DNA of 63,960 nucleotides, filler included, from Globobulimina sp. (taxonomy: Eukaryota), in the NCBI GenBank assembly GCA_003354225.1. It is 25 parts of 25 records of this genome, joined end to end, with 100 filler letters (N's around TTAATTAATTAA, not from the genome) between each part and the next. Parts side by side here need not be neighbours in the genome. Positions count along the whole stretch, not along the records: positions 58,939 to 61,399 come from PIVH01006569.1; 24 more parts are not named here. One strand, given 5' to 3'. This document shows, in pieces, positions 56,378 through 63,960 of the stretch. The notes under the pieces were generated by a model. That model was not told the DNA's origin, ran no database searches, and worked only from the letters and a program-made list of their open reading frames with translations. The position numbers and the translations under genes were made by a program. Position 1 is the stretch's first letter; the number at the start of each line of letters is the position of its first letter.

Positions 56378-58197
56378 GATATTTGAAACAATATCTTTTC
56401 AATCTCTCTTCTTCAAATTCGTCAACAATGGATGTAATAAATCCTTTTGATTCCAACCTGCTGCATCTACCACAAATATGTAAATACGAAGTGTCAACAT
56501 ATGGCATTTCCGCACAAATAATATGATCCAACCAAATAAAATCCAAACCGCGGCAAACCGTCTCGGTGGCAATAACCGCGTCGATGGTTCCCTGCCGGAA
56601 TAATTTTAAAAATTTGCTTCTCATCGTTTTATCATTAATATATTCGTGAAGCAAGGCACATTTTATATCATTTTCAGATAAGCTCTCTGCGAAATGCATC
56701 GGCGAGGAATCTTTATTGACAACGATAAGAACCGCCGGGTTATAAACTTTCTTCTTTTTGGGATCACTCCGAATGGTATTAATTAACTCCGCTGCTATCA
56801 ACGGCTTATCCTATTATATAAACAAAAGAAACATAACATAGCTTACCTTGCTATTACACCATACGTACCTTACTATTATCCACCGCTATATATTGGTGCT
56901 GTATATTTGGCGAAATGAACCTCTTTGGAATATGTGTCTTATTGTCAGTGACATAATTATTTTGCGCCGGATAGGTTGATATTAGCTGCACCGGATATGG
57001 TTGCAATATTTGTTGAATTGTGTTTTTTAACTGATTGCTAATTGTAGCACCAACAAATAATGCGTGACATTTATGATTGTCACTGTCAACGTTGCTTTGT
57101 TGCTTTATGATGCCATTCAATATCAACTGCGCAGGTTTTAAGTGTGAGTGATTCAAATATTTCTTGACTAAATCTTTGTTTTTATGCACATTTTTTACAT
57201 GCGTCGGAAACAACGAATCAATTTCGTCAAATACAATATAATTCATCTTCGATGGTTTGATAATTGAATATAGCAACAACTGACGAATCCGTTTCGGTGT
57301 AGCTATGATTATCGATGGTTTCATTTTATTTATGTAATCTATGTTATAGTCCAGCGATTCATTGCTATTACAATTTAAAACACAGTGTTGGACATTGAAT
57401 TGTTTATTCTTTTTATTTTGGTTTTGATTGTTTGCAAAATAACTGCTTGTGGCATGGTTATGTTTGTAATTATCTGTGTCATACAAATATGATTTGATCA
57501 TTGCTTTAATTTGTAATCCCAACTCATTGCTCGGTATAACAATGACAACCTGCCCACATTGTAATGGTTTTAAGTCATTCAAAATCGGCAACAAATATGC
57601 CAAGGTTTTGCCAGTGCCCATACGCGATTCTATGATGCTGGCCGACATTGCGTAATTTGATTTGAATTCCATTATTTTATCAAAGGCCAAGGATTGGATC
57701 GGTAATGGAGATAAACCGTGTCGTAAAGACAAATTATTTTGTAGTTTTTTGCGTAAATTCATGCTTTCAAATGTTGAATGAGATATCGTTGCTATTTCGG
57801 GAACTGGTGATAAATAATCATGTTTTGACTTAGTTGTCTCTATTAAGGCAGTGGTATTTGTATCGATTGCTGTTTCATCGATAATGTCATTGATGATTTC
57901 ATCAATTTCAGCGTCGGAGTCTTCGTCCAATACATATTTATCCTCGGCAGGCTCTGTGTTTTCGTTAAGGAGAATTGGTTGCATTATGTTTTTATTTTGA
58001 TTTGGTACAGCATCAATCAATGCGGATGACGACAATAGATCGTCTAAAGATACTTCTTTTATCATATTGGATGTGGGTGCTTCACTGCAGAATGATAATA
58101 ATTTATGTGTTTGGTACAGGTTTGAATGAGATTGGATTTTGATGAAAGCATTGCTTTTACGAATGTAATTGATGAGTGTTGAATGAGAGCGCATCAT
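56378..58197 (-). CDS. DEAD-box-like RNA helicase, degenerate motifs, 2 exons, 3' partial
   Basis: GTGKT, PSNEL, TPKR, DEID, GAT, RGLD, HICGRCSR; intron 56811-56868. Confidence 0.85.
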
Positions 58198-58414
58198 GCC
58201 AACAAAGATGTTTTTTTTGTGCGTGAAATTTCTAGAAAAGGACAACTGTTAACGATATATAACCGAAATTTTAAAAAGTACGTGAAATAATATATTCAAA
58301 ACAACCAAAAACAAGAAAAAAAAAGCAAAGATAATATTATGAGTGCAAGGTACGGACATTGATGCTACGAATACAATAATAATACATTCACATACAAAAA
58401 ACAAACAAAATACG

Positions 58415-58838: not shown

Positions 58839-58969
58839 NNNNNNNNNNNNNNNNNNNNNNNNNNNNNNNNNNNNNNNNNNNNTTAATTAATTAANNNNNN
58901 NNNNNNNNNNNNNNNNNNNNNNNNNNNNNNNNNNNNNNAAAAAAAAACAACAAGTTTATATATTTTATG

Positions 58970-61125
58970 TCAATAACTCTCTTCTTCTTCGTCTTCGTCA
59001 TAATCATCATCATCTTTTTCATCAGATTCCTCATCGTCGGGATCCACAATTTTCGCCTCTTGATATTTTTTATATTTTTGAATCAATTCATTGATATTTT
59101 TGTCCGCTTCAATAAATTCATACGAATCCATTCCTTGATCGTAAAACTGTGACAACATTTTTTTTTGCTGGAAATTGGTCTTAAATATTCCTCTCATATT
59201 TTTATATATTTTTAAGATCGCAGTGGAATGAATAACGGACGTAGCTATTAACGGTGTATATTGATCATAATACCAACATTGTTTATAAATCAATGATGAC
59301 TGAAATGGCATGGGATCAATTACTAATTTATCGTCGCATAATTCGTTGGTTAACCCTCGCAATTTATGATCAAAATCGTTTATTATCGCATCATTATTAC
59401 TTTTATAAACAGTGATATGTTGAATAATTTTGCCAGATTTTATCATATCAATTTTGGACGCTGCTCCACAGGAAACATTGTTCATTTTCGACAATATTTC
59501 AGATTTTATCTGCGCTGCACTCAATTGAATCTGTCTTGTTTTCTCACTGAAAAATGGAGAATGTGCCATACTTAAATGCGTAGCGCCAGCATGCAAGGCA
59601 AAGCTCATATACATTTTGCTGAGATTACTAACTAATTCTGGTTCGCCATAAAATCGAAAGGAAGATGTCACGCCACTTAAAACCAACGATATCAACCAAT
59701 TATAATCTGCAAAAGTAATATTCCCAGGCTTTGAACTTAATTTTTCAGCAATTTGATGAATGGCTGCATTATTTATTGCAAATAGTAAATCAGTTTTCGT
59801 CCGCAATGTATTTAATGTCAATAAGGAATTATAATTGGATAAGACATCACTTTCCTTCTTCTCAATGGTAGCTGGATAGATGCAGAAATTGGCAAATATT
59901 TTGCCAGAATAATCGTCTCTTAATGCGCTTTGGATTAAACTTGTGAGTCCTCCGCCGCTGCCACCGCTGATACTATGGAAAATATTAAAACCTTGCAAGT
60001 TATCACATAATTCAATGGTGGACCGTATGACATCTTTGATGTTGTAAAATATCTCCTTACCACTCGTGTAATGTCCCTGCGGCCAATAACTATTTAGTTT
60101 TGTTGAGCCTGCATGGTGCAAAGTGAGTTAGTTAGTAAGTTTTCTACTCAATGAAAAATGTGAAAGCGCTTTTGAAAATAATCAAAACACAGACTTTTGG
60201 TACCTGAATATCCGCAAAACGAATCTGTATCAATCAACGAGCCCAAATACCCGGCTTGTAACGCATTTAAATTATCCAAATCCAAATCGACGAATATTGA
60301 CCGTGGACAAAATGTATCCTCCTTGCAATTGAAATATGTATTGATTTTATCCAATAATATATTATCCGTATTATCATCCAAATCGCCGATAAATTCTCCC
60401 GTTTGGTTGATTTTATGTTCATTCATGATAAGTTTATAAAATTGGCTACCAATATTTGTGCCTGATCCACCCACACAAATTGTAATGATTTCATTGCCCG
60501 AAACAGTAAATGGCACATCGCTGAATTGATTATTTGCGGCGGAGTCCGCTGTGCCAAAATATTGTGTGTCATATGCAATGGCACAATCTGGCTTTTTCAA
60601 CAATAAATCAGTGCGCGATAAGAATGAATCCTTATTTTCATTGTCTGTTCGTGCTGATACAGCCATGGATATTTTAGACTGTGTTGAGCCACATATCATT
60701 GTTTCCATTGAGGTTACGATGTTTTTCATAATGTTTATATTTTCAATGGTTTTGTCACTTTTTAAAATGACGATTATGGCTGTTTTATGCGCTGCTAGTT
60801 TATAAATTGATAAATTATGTTTGGGGAATTGTTGCATTGCGACGGATTGAATGGATGAAACGACATTGTTTGATAATTGTTGGCTTACCATTTTGGAGTA
60901 TTTTTTATTTATTTGTTGGATGTTTTCAATGTTGCAATATATTAAAAATGTTGTATGTGTGTTATTTTTACAAAGTGCGTCCATTTTTTTATGTAATTCA
61001 TCGACGTTGCCGACATTTTGTGCTTGTCCTGATGGGTACTTTTGTTCTTCGTCATTGTTTAAACCTGCTTTTTGTGCGATATTTAATATTTGTTGTAGCG
61101 CTGCTAACTGCTCTTGAGTTGCCAT
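58970..61125 (-). CDS. Degenerate GGDEF-like domain fused to divergent beta-type tubulin (686 aa, 2 exons)
   Basis: Intron 60109-60203 (GT...TACTAAC...CAG) joins the ORFs in frame; EIITICVGGSGTNIG, PRSIFVDL, WPQGHYT, CDNLQGF, HSISGGSGGG, GMDSYEFIEA, acidic tail. Confidence 0.85.
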
Positions 61126-61261
61126 GGTGTAAATACAAAATAATGTGTTTTTAAATGGTAGAGAATGGGTGGAATTAATACACGAAAAACAAAATTGTCA
61201 CAGGACGAATTGAGCGTTTTTGTAGAAAGAAAAATGGATCGAGAAAACAATAACATTTAAT

Positions 61262-61399
61262 AGAATTAGTGCATTTAACTGAATTGAAAGCAAAGTCGAT
61301 AATTCAGTTTATTTTATCCGTCTACAGTCTATATTTATTAGACTAATCGAATAAATGTTTAATTATATCAATCATATTTATGTTGAAAGGATATAATAC
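61262..61399 (-). mobile_element. Diverged MITE copy (right end)
   Basis: Reverse complement aligns collinearly with about 33415-33549, with scattered substitutions. Confidence 0.75.
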
Positions 61400-61538: not shown

Positions 61539-63960
61539 TTTTTTTTTTTCAAGGAAAGAACCAATTTAAATATGGCATCTAAATTTAATTAAATATATTC
61601 CACATAGAATCAATACTAAAAAGGAAAGATTGGGACAAACTCATAATAACAAAATCAAAGAAATGAGTTTGTAACACACATAAAACACAACACAATAACT
61701 ATATGAATAGATATAAAATGATCAAAACTATTTTATTATATCCAATGCATTGTCGCTTCACTAATTTAAATTAATTAATTGTTTTTAAATAGATTTTCTT
61801 GATTATAGATTGAGTAATGATGCAGAAGAGAGACTGCATTTGCCTTATTTAATCGGGTTGAAATATACTGGAAGCAATATCCTGTTGAAACAGATATTTC
61901 TTCATTGATAGAAGCCGCACGTAGTTTCGCTACGCGTTTAATAAACTCGACGGCGTCTTTATGAATGCCCCCGTAATCCTCCATTATAAACGGGAGATAT
62001 ATTAATCCGTTTACATCCGGATTTATATTATTTAAATGATTTTGATATTTATTAATTTTGTGATCATAGAAATGCTTCGCAGCACTCAATTTTTCTCGGG
62101 CCGCCAGTTCGTAGCGACTGTCACAAACAACTGACGTAATACCAATATCTAAAGCCAATGACTCACCGTTCGGCCCCCAATTATTGATATAAATATCAGC
62201 TGGTTTCATTTGATTGTTATTGAACATATGTCTCAATTCTATTGAGTGTTTAATGTCAGCTGCATCTAATAAGTGAGATACTGCATTTACAATCAAATCA
62301 TGTTTATATATTATGCCGGTGCCATGTTTGCATATTATACCATGGTCGCCATATTTATCTACTTTTTCATTGCAGGTCATGCAATTTTCATTACTTATTA
62401 TTAGTATATGTCTCAATTTGCGTTTAATAAGTATTCGCCACTCAGGATTGCTGTAAATCATTCCGTAGTTCTTAATCATTGGCGCGTTAAGCCAGGCATT
62501 TGCATTTCTGTTACACTGCGATTGCAATGCTGCCTTAGCTTTGCCAGTAGCAATACTTAATAAATAATTTAATTGTTTTGCTTGTATCGCATTTATCATC
62601 CATTTGGTTGTATGGACGGCACTGTCGAAAGTCTGGATGTTATACCGGGGATTTACTGATGTATTATAGATTGATAATGAATATGCGATGCGTTGCTGTA
62701 CGATTTTCATATGATTTATATATATATCCGATGCAATTAATCGTTTACAAATCACTTTCGCTGCAAATATAGCTGGCAAATAGATCGCGCTTATTTTATC
62801 GGTCGCAGTGCGCATACCTAATCCAGCTTTTTTTGTAGAGAGGCTACATTGTAAAAATTCAACGTCGTTCAATATAAAACCAAACATTAATGTACATAAT
62901 TCGCGTAATTGTTTGTCGTATATCCTCGCAATTTGTATACTTATTTTTGGTGCCAAGACTCTAATCCAATATATTATTTTGGAAATATTTATGTAATCCT
63001 TCATAATTTTAGTTTGTAAATGGGCTTCTTCCATCGATGCAATTTTGTTGATACTTTTCTTAATTTTATCTAATTTTATTTTCATTTTATTGATTATGTA
63101 ATCATCAGAGCCAATGGGTACGTTTAAACACTCTGAATTTCCATATTCATTAATTTTAAATTGTTTCAAATCATCAGATAGCTGGTCCCAAATCATATTT
63201 TTGTTGCCACCGCAAGTTATTATACTTTTTGAATGATTTAAATGAAAACCAAAAATCGGTCCAATTGTTTTGACAATTTTAATAATAAGATTTGCGTCGC
63301 TAATTTTTAACAGTTCAAAGGTGTCGTCGACATAGCCGGCTTCGCCTTTTTTGATAAAATCAGGTTTGATTTCAATACATTTTTTGAGCACGGTTTCATT
63401 GAATTTCTTTGATACAACATTTGTTAATACGGACGACGACGTGCTTCCTTGTCCCAGTCCCTGTTCATTCTGTAATATATCATCATTATTTAAATAGATA
63501 TAATACGGTTTGTGATATTTTTGCCTGTTATTGAATATCAGCTTTTTGGACAATAATGTATTCCGGGTTTACTTTAATAAATTTGCACGCCGCCTCCATA
63601 CTTAATATCATAGCCTCTGCACCGGATTTTTCCTCTGAAATCTGCGTAGAATCAATAGCTAATCGAATTTGGTCCGATGCGATGTCGATGCCAATCATTG
63701 TGGACAATGTTATAATTGAATTACTTATAATTATTGGGCGGATATCGCAACAAATTCCGTTTTTAATTTTATTTGCCGGAACCAGGCGGCCACCGTTAAT
63801 GTATGGGGCAACGTAGGAATTAATGTTGCCGTTAATAATGAGTTTAAATAACGCTTTGAAAGCACGATCTAACTCGGTGCCACTGCGTTGTTTCCATAAT
63901 TGTATGATATGGTTATTAGATAAGCCAATAATGCCAGGGGCCGCGCAGTCGTTTAATTTG
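61539..63960 (-). mobile_element. CRE-like non-LTR retrotransposon (RT + zinc knuckle + RLE endonuclease), 5' partial, disrupted
   Basis: AAPG, IRPI, GAEA (upstream frame); GLGQG, YVDD; CMTC..D..GDH..IC, KHD, PADI..ALDI, K..KY; A11 run at 61539-61549 after 3' UTR. Confidence 0.9.

Follow-up and report, generated by a model that had tools for sequence, protein, structure and literature searches.

Tubulins are among the most architecturally conservative of eukaryotic proteins, and to our knowledge no alpha- or beta-type tubulin has been described with a folded extra domain at its N terminus. Eukaryotic tubulins carry a T4 signature of the form [SAG]-G-G-T-G-[SA]-G; a lysine at T7 marks beta-tubulin, alpha-tubulin having its catalytic glutamate there, and a C-terminal tyrosine is an alpha-tubulin trait. 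Tubulin relatives of the Misato/DML1 type are thought to serve as GTPase-like scaffolds, while in the gamma-tubulin small complex two tubulin-fold subunits stand side by side through a non-tubulin dimerising part. GGDEF domains are mainly bacterial and rare in eukaryotes, one example being the diguanylate cyclase of Dictyostelium.

Foraminifera show very fast microtubule assembly, helical filaments, and beta2 and alpha2 tubulin paralogues; the passages of the source drawn on here report these alpha2/beta2 duplications for Retaria and do not mention fused domains (PMC5455982). In bacteria, the diguanylate cyclase YfiN/DgcN acts at the FtsZ ring, according to the excerpted text of PMC4992967. 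The passages of PMC7159879 drawn on here, on tubulin and GGDEF, deal with conflict systems of bacteria and contain no tubulin-GGDEF fusion, and the portion of the Filoreta preprint at hand (PMC13371060) holds nothing on tubulin architecture. Among the matches listed for tubulin and GGDEF domains in eukaryotes, as far as their excerpts go, there is no such fusion. The first-pass annotation of the locus presented here knew of no described example, and full-text literature searches likewise returned no description of a GGDEF-tubulin fusion; supplementary tubulin lists (PMC5455982, Reticulomyxa genome) could contain the gene uncommented.

The locus comes from Globobulimina sp. (GCA_003354225.1). 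The window, meaning the whole stretch of 63,960 nucleotides that was analysed, strings together 25 contigs, each 2,461-2,464 bp long and unrelated to the others, with N runs and a TTAATTAATTAA spacer between them. One of these, the 2,461-bp contig PIVH01006569.1 (58939-61399), carries a two-exon gene of 686 codons on its minus strand. Its product is, with high confidence, a single polypeptide composed of a conserved helix, a dead GGDEF-fold domain, a linker of ~20 residues, and a complete divergent beta-type tubulin with an acidic, Tyr-ending tail. Its features are as follows.

58970-61125, minus strand: whole coding region, 686 codons plus stop in two exons; 2061 nt with one terminal stop
60204-61125, minus strand: exon 1, residues 1-307 and the first base of codon 308
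61060-61125, minus strand: N-terminal helix, residues 1-22, strongly conserved, with nine invariant columns within 9-22
60556-61005, minus strand: degenerate GGDEF-fold domain (predicted), residues 41-190 (fold ~37-190), element order a0-b1-a1-a2-b2-b3-a3-b4-a4-b5
60781-60801, minus strand: former R-x-G-G-(D/E)-E-F active-site hairpin, residues 109-115, K-L-A-A-H-K-T in the HMM and hhalign alignments
60493-60555, minus strand: linker from the GGDEF-like domain to tubulin strand S1, residues 191-211, pLDDT 37-46, partly conserved
60204-60492, minus strand: tubulin start, residues 212-307, matching beta-tubulin residues 3-91 (E 6.8e-11 to 3.2e-9)
60448-60471, minus strand: tubulin T1 loop, G-G-S-G-T-N-I-G replacing G-Q-C-G-N-Q-I-G
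60109-60203, minus strand: intron, 95 nt, GT..AG, phase 1
58973-60108, minus strand: exon 2, residues 308-686, the remainder of the tubulin
59948-59968, minus strand: tubulin T4 signature, S-G-G-S-G-G-G replacing G-G-G-T-G-S-G (GGGTGGG and IGGTGGG in relatives)
58973-59044, minus strand: acidic C-terminal tail, residues 663-686, last residue Tyr, with the same ending in P0003 and P0005
58970-58972, minus strand: stop codon, directly after exon 2

Relatives are few. An exhaustive phmmer search with the N-terminal 210 residues against 1.84 billion representatives gave 5 matches at E<=1e-3, 3 of them real: P0003 (708 aa, EukProt Nonionella stella), P0005 (690 aa, ENA), and the fragment P0004 (139 aa). 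The remaining two, P0006 and P0007, are spurious, consisting of 17 and 10 repeated matches of ~4-5 bits between residues 150-178 and Thr-rich repeat proteins. A search for the same architecture elsewhere, as the first-pass annotation had suggested, thus had a positive outcome: P0003 and P0005 are both GGDEF-tubulin fusions. In P0003, whose sequence is collinear with that of the window protein, identity is 49% in the exon 1 part and 60% in the exon 2 part. A word-index search found no N-module relatives of 168-538 aa among 509 candidates, and P0003 as the only longer protein with the module; pattern matches in JGI metagenome contigs (597 and 70) included none confirmed by tblastn. The fused architecture is apparently confined to this lineage, and the gene's host is probably foraminiferal.

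The reading of one spliced 686-aa gene stands, since the two-exon frame is present on the minus strand, all the strings first quoted from it are found there, and the splice appears in contigs of all four public runs aligned to this one. Each of these runs has one contig in which 60107/8 is followed directly by 60203/4, so that exactly 95 nt bounded by CT..AC on the plus strand are missing; with the intron skipped in every run, the splice is more than a prediction. The runs have no library type on record and none is recorded as RNA, and their intron-less contigs are most simply read as cDNA. Depth by bin is 1.3-10 in the intron versus 15-130 in flanking bins. The coding region is collinear with P0003 and P0005 across both exons, exon 1 running from the N-terminal helix through the GGDEF-like domain and linker into the tubulin, of which it encodes the first ~96 residues. 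The open frame has its first ATG at 61125; P0004 begins at the same residues, and contigs of runs X1 and X2 terminate nearby, at 61144-61151. Thirty-nine of the 40 listed variant places fall in the coding sequence, 29 synonymous and 10 not (51 further places lie beyond the 40). The fused gene is real, spliced, under purifying selection, conserved, and apparently expressed. The earlier description 'mid-contig' needs correcting: the gene nearly fills the 2,461-bp contig and for that reason leaves no usable gene neighbourhood. Searches of the whole window by tblastn with P0005 and with P0008, an unfused tubulin discussed below, found no second tubulin-like gene.

The two parts meet at residue 212 (nt 60492), inside exon 1. 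Two contigs bridge this point, one of 932 nt from run X2 (60226-61151, 2 differences) and one of 732 nt from run X1 (60433-61144, 4 differences), and the bridging contigs also lack the intron; together with the two collinear full-length relatives they bear out the join. The fusion had also been described as uninterrupted and of even composition, and so it is: no stop lies at the junction, and composition is even across it. Since the linker (residues 191-211) contains no Met, the tubulin lacks a separate start codon. Pieces of the ~95%-alike contigs from runs X6 and X8 break off at 60492 and pick up again at 60500 and 60521; this may be a branch of the assembly graph where the tubulin start is conserved, or it may have a biological cause.

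Structural modelling indicates that the N-module (residues ~37-190) is a GGDEF fold, as had been proposed from its motifs. The AlphaFold model of the window N-module has pLDDT 68 overall, about 80 in the core, and pTM 0.69, with pLDDT near 44 in three of the five models; both this model and that of the 47%-identical relative P0005 were built on alignments of 4-6 sequences. Compared by VIA-align with 48,161 representative chains, the window model matches 3pjx_A best (Z 16.3, rmsd 2.3 A, 142 residues aligned), and the N-module in the P0005 model does much the same, with 146 residues aligned at Z 16.6 and rmsd 2.4 A; in both cases the first 33 ranks are GGDEF throughout. Class III cyclases reach Z 11.3 (3et6_B) and 11.2 at best, under all 33 GGDEF rows, so that the predicted fold lies nearer GGDEF than class III nucleotidyl cyclase catalytic domains. 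Foldseek gives 47 matches at E<=1e-3 (top E 4e-6), every listed row GGDEF. The N-terminal helix is modelled at residues 4-19 with pLDDT 44-47.

Sequence comparisons point the same way. The Pfam GGDEF profile PF00990, with a curated cut-off of 23.8 bits, is matched below threshold and at equivalent positions in two of the four family members, the window protein (residues 43-176 against profile 18-151 of 161, 13.2-13.5 bits) and P0003 (17.5 bits); P0005 and P0004 give no match to this profile, and no family member reaches its cut-off. By hhalign, the 4-sequence family profile aligns with 17 E. coli GGDEF domains over 143 columns at E 1.9e-5 (probability 77.7%), compared with E 0.043 or worse and at most 43 columns in controls (1 reversed and 20 column-shuffled). 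Protein-language-model features place 24 of the 30 nearest clusters in GGDEF (top score 0.96); with PF00990 excluded, the neighbours are BcsE, GdpP-GGDEF, PelD-GGDEF, and GTP cyclohydrolase III, all at 0.85 or below. NCBIfam yields three weak matches, all on GGDEF regions of LapD, DosP, and PRK10060, and the family profile finds 0 chains among PDB sequences at E<=10.

The HMM and hhalign alignments bear out the motif correspondences first noticed, mapping DxDxFK..ND to N-I-E-N-I-Q..N-K, GG(D/E)EF to A-A-H-K-T, SiGva to SMAVS, and ADxAL to TDLLL, and in them, as anticipated, the catalytic residues are gone. The acidic pair is replaced by H and K, with K114 invariant across the family; relatives have T-Q-N-K-T, N-E-S-K-I, and S-A-V-K-T at the GG(D/E)EF position. 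At the end of strand b1, the metal-binding D-x-D is N-I-E in the window and N-I-D/E in relatives, the first Asp becoming Asn in all four. At the RxxD I-site, five residues before the active-site motif, the window protein has P-K-H-N-L and the relatives show no conservation, and the second guanine-binding Asp (G-D of a2) aligns with S-Q. The Asn aligned to the guanine-contacting residue of helix a1, N73, is invariant. With the GG(D/E)EF motif, the metal-binding Asp, and the RxxD site lost, the module should be catalytically dead and should make no c-di-GMP, judging from these alignments.

Residues 212-686 form a complete, very divergent beta-like tubulin, in keeping with the full-length tubulin first read from residue ~210 onward. 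Pfam Tubulin PF00091 scores 47.4 bits in exon 1 and 93.8 bits in exon 2, both above the cut-off of 33, and 158.9 and 139.5 bits in the relatives. By phmmer, exon 2 aligns to beta-tubulin 98-450 (E 1.2e-45), and P0005 residues 221-687 align end to end with beta-tubulin 3-445 (E 2.4e-59). The beta-type assignment is supported by best hits, the best 60 solved-structure matches being beta chains in each of three PDB searches (exon 1 part, exon 2, and P0005), and by T7, where N-L-S-K in the fused protein and D-L-R-K in yeast beta-tubulin have their Lys in the same column; the original class assignment is thereby supported by best hits and one residue and stays provisional, and NCBIfam has no tubulin class models.

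Identity to canonical beta-tubulin is only about 30%. The intermediate domain is the most changed, while the nucleotide-binding half and the outer H11-H12 surface are better kept; a hand count of P0005 against beta gives about 19% over beta 292-384 versus about 33-41% over 3-191. Pfam Tubulin_C (PF03953) has no match at E<=1 in the window exons, P0003, or P0005, and its region is still aligned end to end to beta-tubulin by phmmer. The changes of GQCG to GGSG in T1 and of GGGTGSG to SGGSGGG in T4, already remarked on in the first reading, recur in the alignments; the canonical T1 (G-Q-x-G-x-Q-I-G) and T4 signatures are absent, and the loops stay Gly-rich. T6 and H7 retain their guanine-contacting Asn residues. 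GTP binding may persist but is not assured, because T1, T4, and the position just ahead of the conserved Trp in T3 depart from the canonical sequence. In the AlphaFold model of full-length P0005 the N-module alone is folded (pLDDT 70-86), the tubulin half having pLDDT of about 25-40.

Overall, we lean toward a lineage-specific tubulin paired through an apparently dead GGDEF module. Complex prediction with two N-module copies gave ipSAE of 0.65, 0.67, and 0.67 (best of three controls 0.00), with at least 52% of contacts agreeing between runs and partner pLDDT of at least 76. Among proteins of known structure, the mark for a dimer was passed by 21 of the 30 that form pairs of one chain and by none of the 23 solved as single chains (17 of 29 and 0 of 30 among eukaryotes), and by one of seven eukaryotic proteins lacking an older solved relative; the predictor may have passed the pair because it had learned from the many GGDEF dimers already solved. 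The predicted interface comprises residues 72-99 and 142-149, includes the invariant polar residues Q83, N86, N87, S90, and S91, and leaves out the N-terminal helix. Invariant residues make up 11 of 23 positions there versus 37 of 128 elsewhere in the core, a weak enrichment that is not significant (one-sided Fisher p = 0.063). On this modelling it is about an even call that the GGDEF-like module homodimerises through the invariant a2 helix (Q-L-S-N-N-V-x-S-S-I) and the end of a3. Among the roles first suggested for the protein (capping, sensor, or dimerisation), dimerisation is the one strengthened here, by computation. Such dimerisation would hold two tubulin bodies together, and the pair could then act, more tentatively, as a bivalent unit of the microtubule system (a cross-link, end cap, or seed) in place of an ordinary lattice subunit. 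The tubulin is most changed in its intermediate domain, which makes lateral and minus-end-facing contacts, and better kept in its nucleotide half and H11-H12.

Several other readings can be envisioned. An artefact, whether an assembly chimera or read-through of two neighbouring genes, might be suspected in a short contig of a very fragmented assembly, the more so as the X6 and X8 pieces both stop exactly at the domain boundary. The X1 and X2 contigs nonetheless cross the junction while skipping the intron, the same collinear architecture recurs in two full-length relatives from other sources, the junction has neither stop nor Met and no break in composition, and runs X6 and X8 likewise hold both halves; this reading is scarcely credible and already close to refuted. 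It is also quite improbable that the N-module is no GGDEF homologue at all and represents convergence or another ferredoxin-like or palm fold, for example one like class III cyclases or GTP cyclohydrolase III. All sequence matches do lie under curated cut-offs, the PDB profile search is empty, and shallow alignments may push structure predictors to a common fold. GGDEF nevertheless stands about 5 Z units above class III cyclases in two separate models, the 143 hhalign columns are in register at an E value none of the 21 controls approached, and Pfam, NCBIfam, and language-model matches all indicate GGDEF-type domains.

Two further alternatives concern function. The degenerate module may bind a guanine nucleotide or cyclic dinucleotide, as bacterial degenerate GGDEF receptors do, and signal to the tubulin to tune polymerisation. 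The invariance of N73, the persistence of basic residues at the a4 position, and the clustering of conserved polar residues about the former active-site face would suit such a sensor, as would, at the level of a lead, the c-di-GMP-binding BcsE and PelD-type neighbours that come nearest once PF00990 is excluded. The metal-binding Asp, the acidic pair, and the I-site have all been replaced, S-Q occupies the second guanine-binding position, and no literature linking GGDEF to foraminifera or Reticulomyxa was found, that joining GGDEF and Rhizaria concerning amino-acid sensors in the excerpts at hand; we consider a sensor distinctly unlikely. Alternatively, the protein may be a non-polymerising pseudo-tubulin, a GTPase-like scaffold outside microtubules whose GGDEF-like module is an interaction domain for an unrelated process. 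Low identity to canonical beta, the strongly altered intermediate domain, the missing Tubulin_C match, a weak match to Misat_Tub_SegII, and the altered T1, T3, and T4 loops speak for this. The end-to-end alignment to beta-tubulin and the retained T6 and H7 Asn residues speak against it, as does an H11-H12 surface kept with the acidic Tyr-ending tail in all three full-length members, which is hard to explain unless a microtubule-type outer face is presented to motors or MAPs. A pseudo-tubulin seems rather unlikely.

Returning to the paired tubulin, its boldest form is a foraminiferal self-pairing tubulin in which the putatively dead, dimerising GGDEF module holds two beta-like bodies side by side, as a one-gene analogue of the gamma-tubulin small complex or as a bivalent cap or cross-linker; we rate this version as unlikely. 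If true, such a protein could seed, cap, or tie microtubules and helical tubulin filaments, and could partly explain the exceptionally fast assembly and bundling of reticulopodial microtubules. Were the module still to sense guanine nucleotide, a bolder variant, a GGDEF-type receptor would be coupled directly to a eukaryotic cytoskeletal polymer. Foraminifera are a classic case of unusual microtubule behaviour, and the fused gene offers a concrete candidate for how they organise tubulin; it likewise appears to show clearly how a signalling fold found mainly in bacteria can be put to structural use in a eukaryote.

Among the systems that come close is beta-tubulin itself, both canonical beta1 and the divergent beta2 of Retaria. 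The full-length body of the fused protein aligns to beta 3-445 and carries W-x-x-G-H-Y-T, C-D-x-L-Q-G-F, G-V-T-x-x-x-R-F, G-M-D-x-x-E-F-x-E-A (H11-H12), an acidic tail, and the T7 Lys. It differs from beta-tubulin in a 211-residue N-terminal extension with a folded domain, in its T1 (GGSGTNIG) and T4 (SGGSGGG) loops, in a strongly diverged intermediate domain with Tubulin_C undetected, and in a tail ending in Tyr. P0008 (488 aa, ENA) is an unfused, divergent beta-like tubulin, the only one from the word-index search, which is insensitive here, with 33% identity to window exon 2 and 35% to P0005. It shares the G-N-E-I-x-T-x-C-x-G start of S1, C-D-N-L-Q-G-F, N-W-L-I-S, a T4 loop of the [S/T]-G-G-x-G-G-G type, and the T7 insertion (E-P-x-I), and it opens with M-A-T-Q-D-E, similar to the start of the fused proteins. 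Unlike them, it extends by only 17 residues at the N terminus, has no GGDEF-like module, is much nearer canonical beta (296 bits versus 205 for P0005), and its tail does not end in Tyr.

On the GGDEF side, the nearest counterparts are bacterial degenerate GGDEF domains (LapD, FimX, PelD, BcsE, and GdpP), which share the predicted fold, the loss of GG(D/E)EF, and the position of a structural or regulatory module beside another domain; in the VIA-align rankings of both models LapD's GGDEF domain comes first (Z 16.3 and 16.6), rows within 1 Z unit being tied. Here, in contrast, the module is eukaryotic, is fused to tubulin instead of EAL, HAMP, or PAS, falls under the Pfam cut-off, lacks the RxxD c-di-GMP-binding motif, and is preceded by a conserved short helix and variable linker in place of a signalling S-helix. 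The gamma-tubulin small complex would be a functional analogy only: the plus-end-facing nucleotide domain appears better conserved in the fused tubulin by hand count, but there is no sequence affinity to gamma-tubulin, and no GCP-like partner is known. YfiN/DgcN, as far as the passages of PMC4992967 go, is likewise a protein with a GGDEF domain that acts physically on a cytoskeleton of the tubulin superfamily; there, separate bacterial proteins meet, with an active GGDEF and FtsZ as partner, whereas here the two parts form a covalent eukaryotic fusion whose GGDEF domain is, by its motifs, dead.

The first-pass annotation had described a single spliced gene in which a GGDEF-like domain precedes a complete, divergent beta-type tubulin; that observation is confirmed, and the structural part of its interpretation is supported. 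On the minus strand, exon 1 (307 codons plus one base) is open from an ATG at 61125 up to a GT at 60203/60202, and the exon 2 frame is open after an AG at 60110/60109 to a stop at 58972-58970. The intron is 95 nt long, the split codon encodes Gly, and the product has 686 residues. The splice is confirmed: all four aligned public sequencing runs contain one contig each in which 60107/8 is joined to 60203/4 and 95 nt reading CT..AC on the plus strand are skipped, and depth in the intron bin is 1.3-10 vs 15-130 in the adjoining bins. Library types of the runs are not on record, and the intron-less contigs are most simply read as cDNA. At the 5′ end, contigs from runs X1 and X2 terminate at 61144-61151, with adapter sequence in one case, which fits a 5′ UTR of ~20-26 nt and a start at ATG 61125; P0004, a fragmentary relative, has the same N-terminal residues as the window protein. 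The gene is under purifying selection. Among the 40 variant places listed between the window and the run contigs (51 further ones exist), 39 lie in the coding sequence, 29 synonymous and 10 not, and the three that fall in the N-terminal module are all synonymous.

The window consists of 25 unrelated, separate contigs of 2,461-2,464 bp each rather than a single locus, joined by N runs around a spacer, TTAATTAATTAA, that carries stops in six frames; the contigs are apparently ordered by length. Adjacency of genes on either side of a spacer is meaningless. The gene's own contig (58939-61399) has 33% G+C and, as had been claimed, is even in composition. Features of the gene and of the neighboring contigs are as follows.

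56854-58248, minus strand: ORF of 464 aa with a DEAD/DEAH-box helicase domain (Pfam PF00270, E 8.1e-17), on a separate neighboring contig
58973-59044, minus strand: long acidic C-terminal tail with Tyr as last residue; the C-termini of the relatives P0003 and P0005 are alike (3/3 full-length fused proteins)
61060-61125, minus strand: residues 1-22, a short conserved helix, near-identical in the window and Nonionella stella proteins
61775-63568, minus strand: Asn/Ile/Lys-rich ORF of 597 aa on a neighboring contig, with no Pfam family at E<=1e-3

Upstream of the gene, at 61255-61345, depth rises to 253-597 in three runs, and beyond 61256-61267 the sequence of many run contigs is unlike the window; this looks like a dispersed repeat close to the contig end. 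Depth is also high (45-412) at 58939-59021, and contigs have loose ends at 58980-59014, where the acidic tail is encoded; similar Asp/Glu-rich low-complexity sequence occurs in other transcripts.

The tubulin part starts at residue 212 (nt 60492), within exon 1, and the two parts are indeed joined there: a 932-nt contig from X2 (60226-61151, 2 differences) and a 732-nt contig from X1 (60433-61144, 4 differences) both span the boundary. The boundary contains neither a stop nor a Met, and the usual tubulin start M-R-E is replaced by G-N-E, so the tubulin part is not producible alone. Over exons 1 and 2, P0003 and the window protein are collinear at 49% and 60% identity, through the splice site as well, and P0005 also shows this collinearity. 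With junction-spanning contigs, an uninterrupted boundary, and collinear relatives, a chimeric origin is effectively excluded. A separate observation concerns X6 and X8 (~95%-alike data), whose tubulin-side contig pieces both stop at exactly 60492, where the first aligned codon of the tubulin begins, and restart at 60500 and 60521; this could reflect an assembly-graph branch at paralogue-shared tubulin sequence or a local indel.

Sequence signals for the N-terminal module (GGDEF-like at residues ~37-190) are weak, yet all point to GGDEF. Against the Pfam GGDEF profile, the window protein scores 13.2-13.5 bits (residues 43-176 on profile positions 18-151 of 161) and P0003 17.5 bits (residues 77-206 on 17-145), both below the cut-off of 23.8 bits, and P0005 and P0004 give no match in that search. 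NCBIfam yields three weak matches, on the GGDEF regions of LapD, DosP, and PRK10060. In a protein-language-model search, GGDEF accounts for 24 of the 30 nearest clusters (top score 0.96); with PF00990 excluded, the next-best clusters are BcsE, GdpP-GGDEF, PelD-GGDEF, and GTP cyclohydrolase III, at <=0.85. A profile was also built from E. coli K-12 GGDEF domains, using 17 of the 18 matches and omitting a partial one, L019. Its HMM aligned all four family members in register (16.5, 11.8, 11.4, and 6.6 bits), and hhalign of the family profile against it gave a probability of 77.7%, E 1.9e-5, and a score of 37.7 over 143 columns, compared with scores <=18.0, a best E of 0.043, and <=43 columns for one reversed and 20 column-shuffled controls.

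By predicted fold and this profile-profile comparison, the module is a remote GGDEF homologue, in line with the original reading of the N-terminus. Structure prediction for the window module used a four-sequence alignment and five models, two at the best level and three near pLDDT 44; the best prediction has pLDDT 68 overall (~80 for residues 40-190), pTM 0.69, and the order a0-b1-a1-a2-b2-b3-a3-b4-a4-b5. Foldseek against the PDB returned 47 chains at E<=1e-3, with GGDEF proteins in every row listed. VIA-align against 48,161 representatives placed GGDEF domains at ranks 1-33 (Z 16.3 to 12.9), headed by LapD 3pjx_A (rmsd 2.3 Å over 142 residues), and class III cyclases first at rank 34 (Z <=11.3). 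In the full-length model of P0005, the N-terminal module alone is folded, with the same topology as the window model, and again ranks 1-33 are all GGDEF (Z 16.6, rmsd 2.4 Å, 146 aligned).

By Pfam cut-off and every catalytic criterion of its sequence, the module nevertheless falls outside the active GGDEF family, and the catalytic residues reported lost are all replaced or absent. All four members have Asn (N-I-E/D) in place of the metal-binding Asp that closes strand b1, and G-G-(D/E)-E-F has become A-A-H-K-T in the window protein and T-Q-N-K-T, N-E-S-K-I, and S-A-V-K-T in the relatives, with an invariant Lys in the former motif. The RxxD inhibitory site is absent, and G-R-N after a4 is deleted. 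Kept and invariant are N73 of a1, Q-L-S-N-N-V-x-S-S-I on a2, and S-R-x-D-L-L-L on a4. The conserved N-terminal helix is followed by ~18 residues that vary between the window and Nonionella stella proteins, and it lies outside the predicted dimer interface described below; its conservation suggests a docking motif for a partner.

The tubulin half is recognized by Pfam Tubulin (PF00091) above cut-off in exon 1 (47.4 bits), exon 2 (93.8 bits), and the relatives, whereas Tubulin_C matches no member at E<=1. With phmmer, residues 221-687 of P0005 align to beta-tubulin 3-445 (E 2.4e-59), window exon 2 to beta 98-450 (E 1.2e-45), and exon 1 residues 212-304 to beta 3-91. The 60 best matches listed in each of three tubulin-part searches are all beta chains, and the T7 Lys of beta has a Lys counterpart here; the putative beta-type assignment comes from these best matches and the T7 residue. 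Every beta-like hallmark string named earlier is present, and the GQCG and GGGTGSG loops are changed as noted (T1, G-G-S-G-T-N-I-G; T4, S-G-G-S-G-G-G). Tyr or Phe replaces Asn before the conserved T3 Trp. The protein is thus distant from canonical beta, and its identity of ~30% is graded: by approximate hand count on P0005, it is 33-41% over 3-191, ~29% over 192-291, ~19% over 292-384, and ~36% over 385-445. Best kept, therefore, is the nucleotide-binding half together with the outer H11-H12 helices, and the intermediate domain is most changed. A terminal Tyr is an alpha-tubulin-like ending (tyrosination or a CAP-Gly EEY-type motif); in the fused proteins it sits on a beta-like body, and P0008, an unfused tubulin, has no final Tyr.

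An exhaustive phmmer search among 1.84 billion representatives, with the first 210 residues as query, gave five matches at E<=1e-3. Of these, P0003 (708 aa, EukProt, Nonionella stella), P0005 (690 aa, ENA), and P0004 (a 139-aa fragment) are genuine. The other two were rejected as artefacts, being repeated 4-5-bit matches to Thr-rich repeat proteins. The JGI metagenome contigs searched contained no family member. With four members found and none in those contigs, the family looks confined to foraminifer-like protists.

Diguanylate cyclases work as dimers, and degenerate GGDEF domains often have structural or receptor roles. When two copies of the window module were predicted together, ipSAE was 0.65, 0.67, and 0.67 (best of three controls, 0.00), which passes a mark reached by 21 of 30 solved homomeric pairs and 0 of 23 solved single chains; for eukaryotes the figures are 17/29 and 0/30, with only 1/7 reached where no older solved relative exists. 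Contact agreement between runs was at least 52% and partner pLDDT at least 76. The predicted symmetric interface (residues 72-99 and 142-149) includes the invariant polar a2 residues, and invariant positions are weakly enriched there (11/23 vs 37/128, p = 0.063). Because this enrichment is weak and the pass may be memory of solved GGDEF dimers, the chances that the module dimerizes seem evenly balanced.

Such a dimer would pair two tubulin bodies, and it is possible, if doubtful, that the pair works bivalently within the microtubule system, cross-linking, capping, or seeding. Retention of the acidic tail and of the H11-H12 surface suggests that a microtubule-type outer face is still displayed, and the changes in the intermediate domain speak against the protein being an ordinary lattice subunit. 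That the fused protein is instead a non-polymerizing scaffold seems unlikely, and a sensor role for the N-terminal module quite improbable.

A word-index search, which has low sensitivity when the query is this divergent, gave a single unfused tubulin, P0008 (488 aa, ENA, 33% identity), itself beta-like and divergent, with 296 bits to beta. It has several family-specific strings and nearly the same first six residues in common with the fused proteins; a 17-residue extension follows those residues, and the T1 loop reads G-Q-A-G, like that of alpha-tubulin. P0008 may be the fused family's unfused sister or ancestor.

The openly searchable full-text literature contained nothing joining GGDEF with foraminifera or Reticulomyxa, and what it gave on GGDEF and Rhizaria was unrelated. 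Among the matches listed for tubulin, "GGDEF domain," and eukaryot-, titles and abstract openings indicated no such fusion. It may be that the gene sits unremarked in some protein list. In the accessible portions of the account of Retaria alpha2 and beta2 tubulins, these are described without extra domains (PMC5455982). GGDEF and tubulin domains are each a known kind; their combination, in which a eukaryotic tubulin carries a dead GGDEF domain, appears to be a new architecture.
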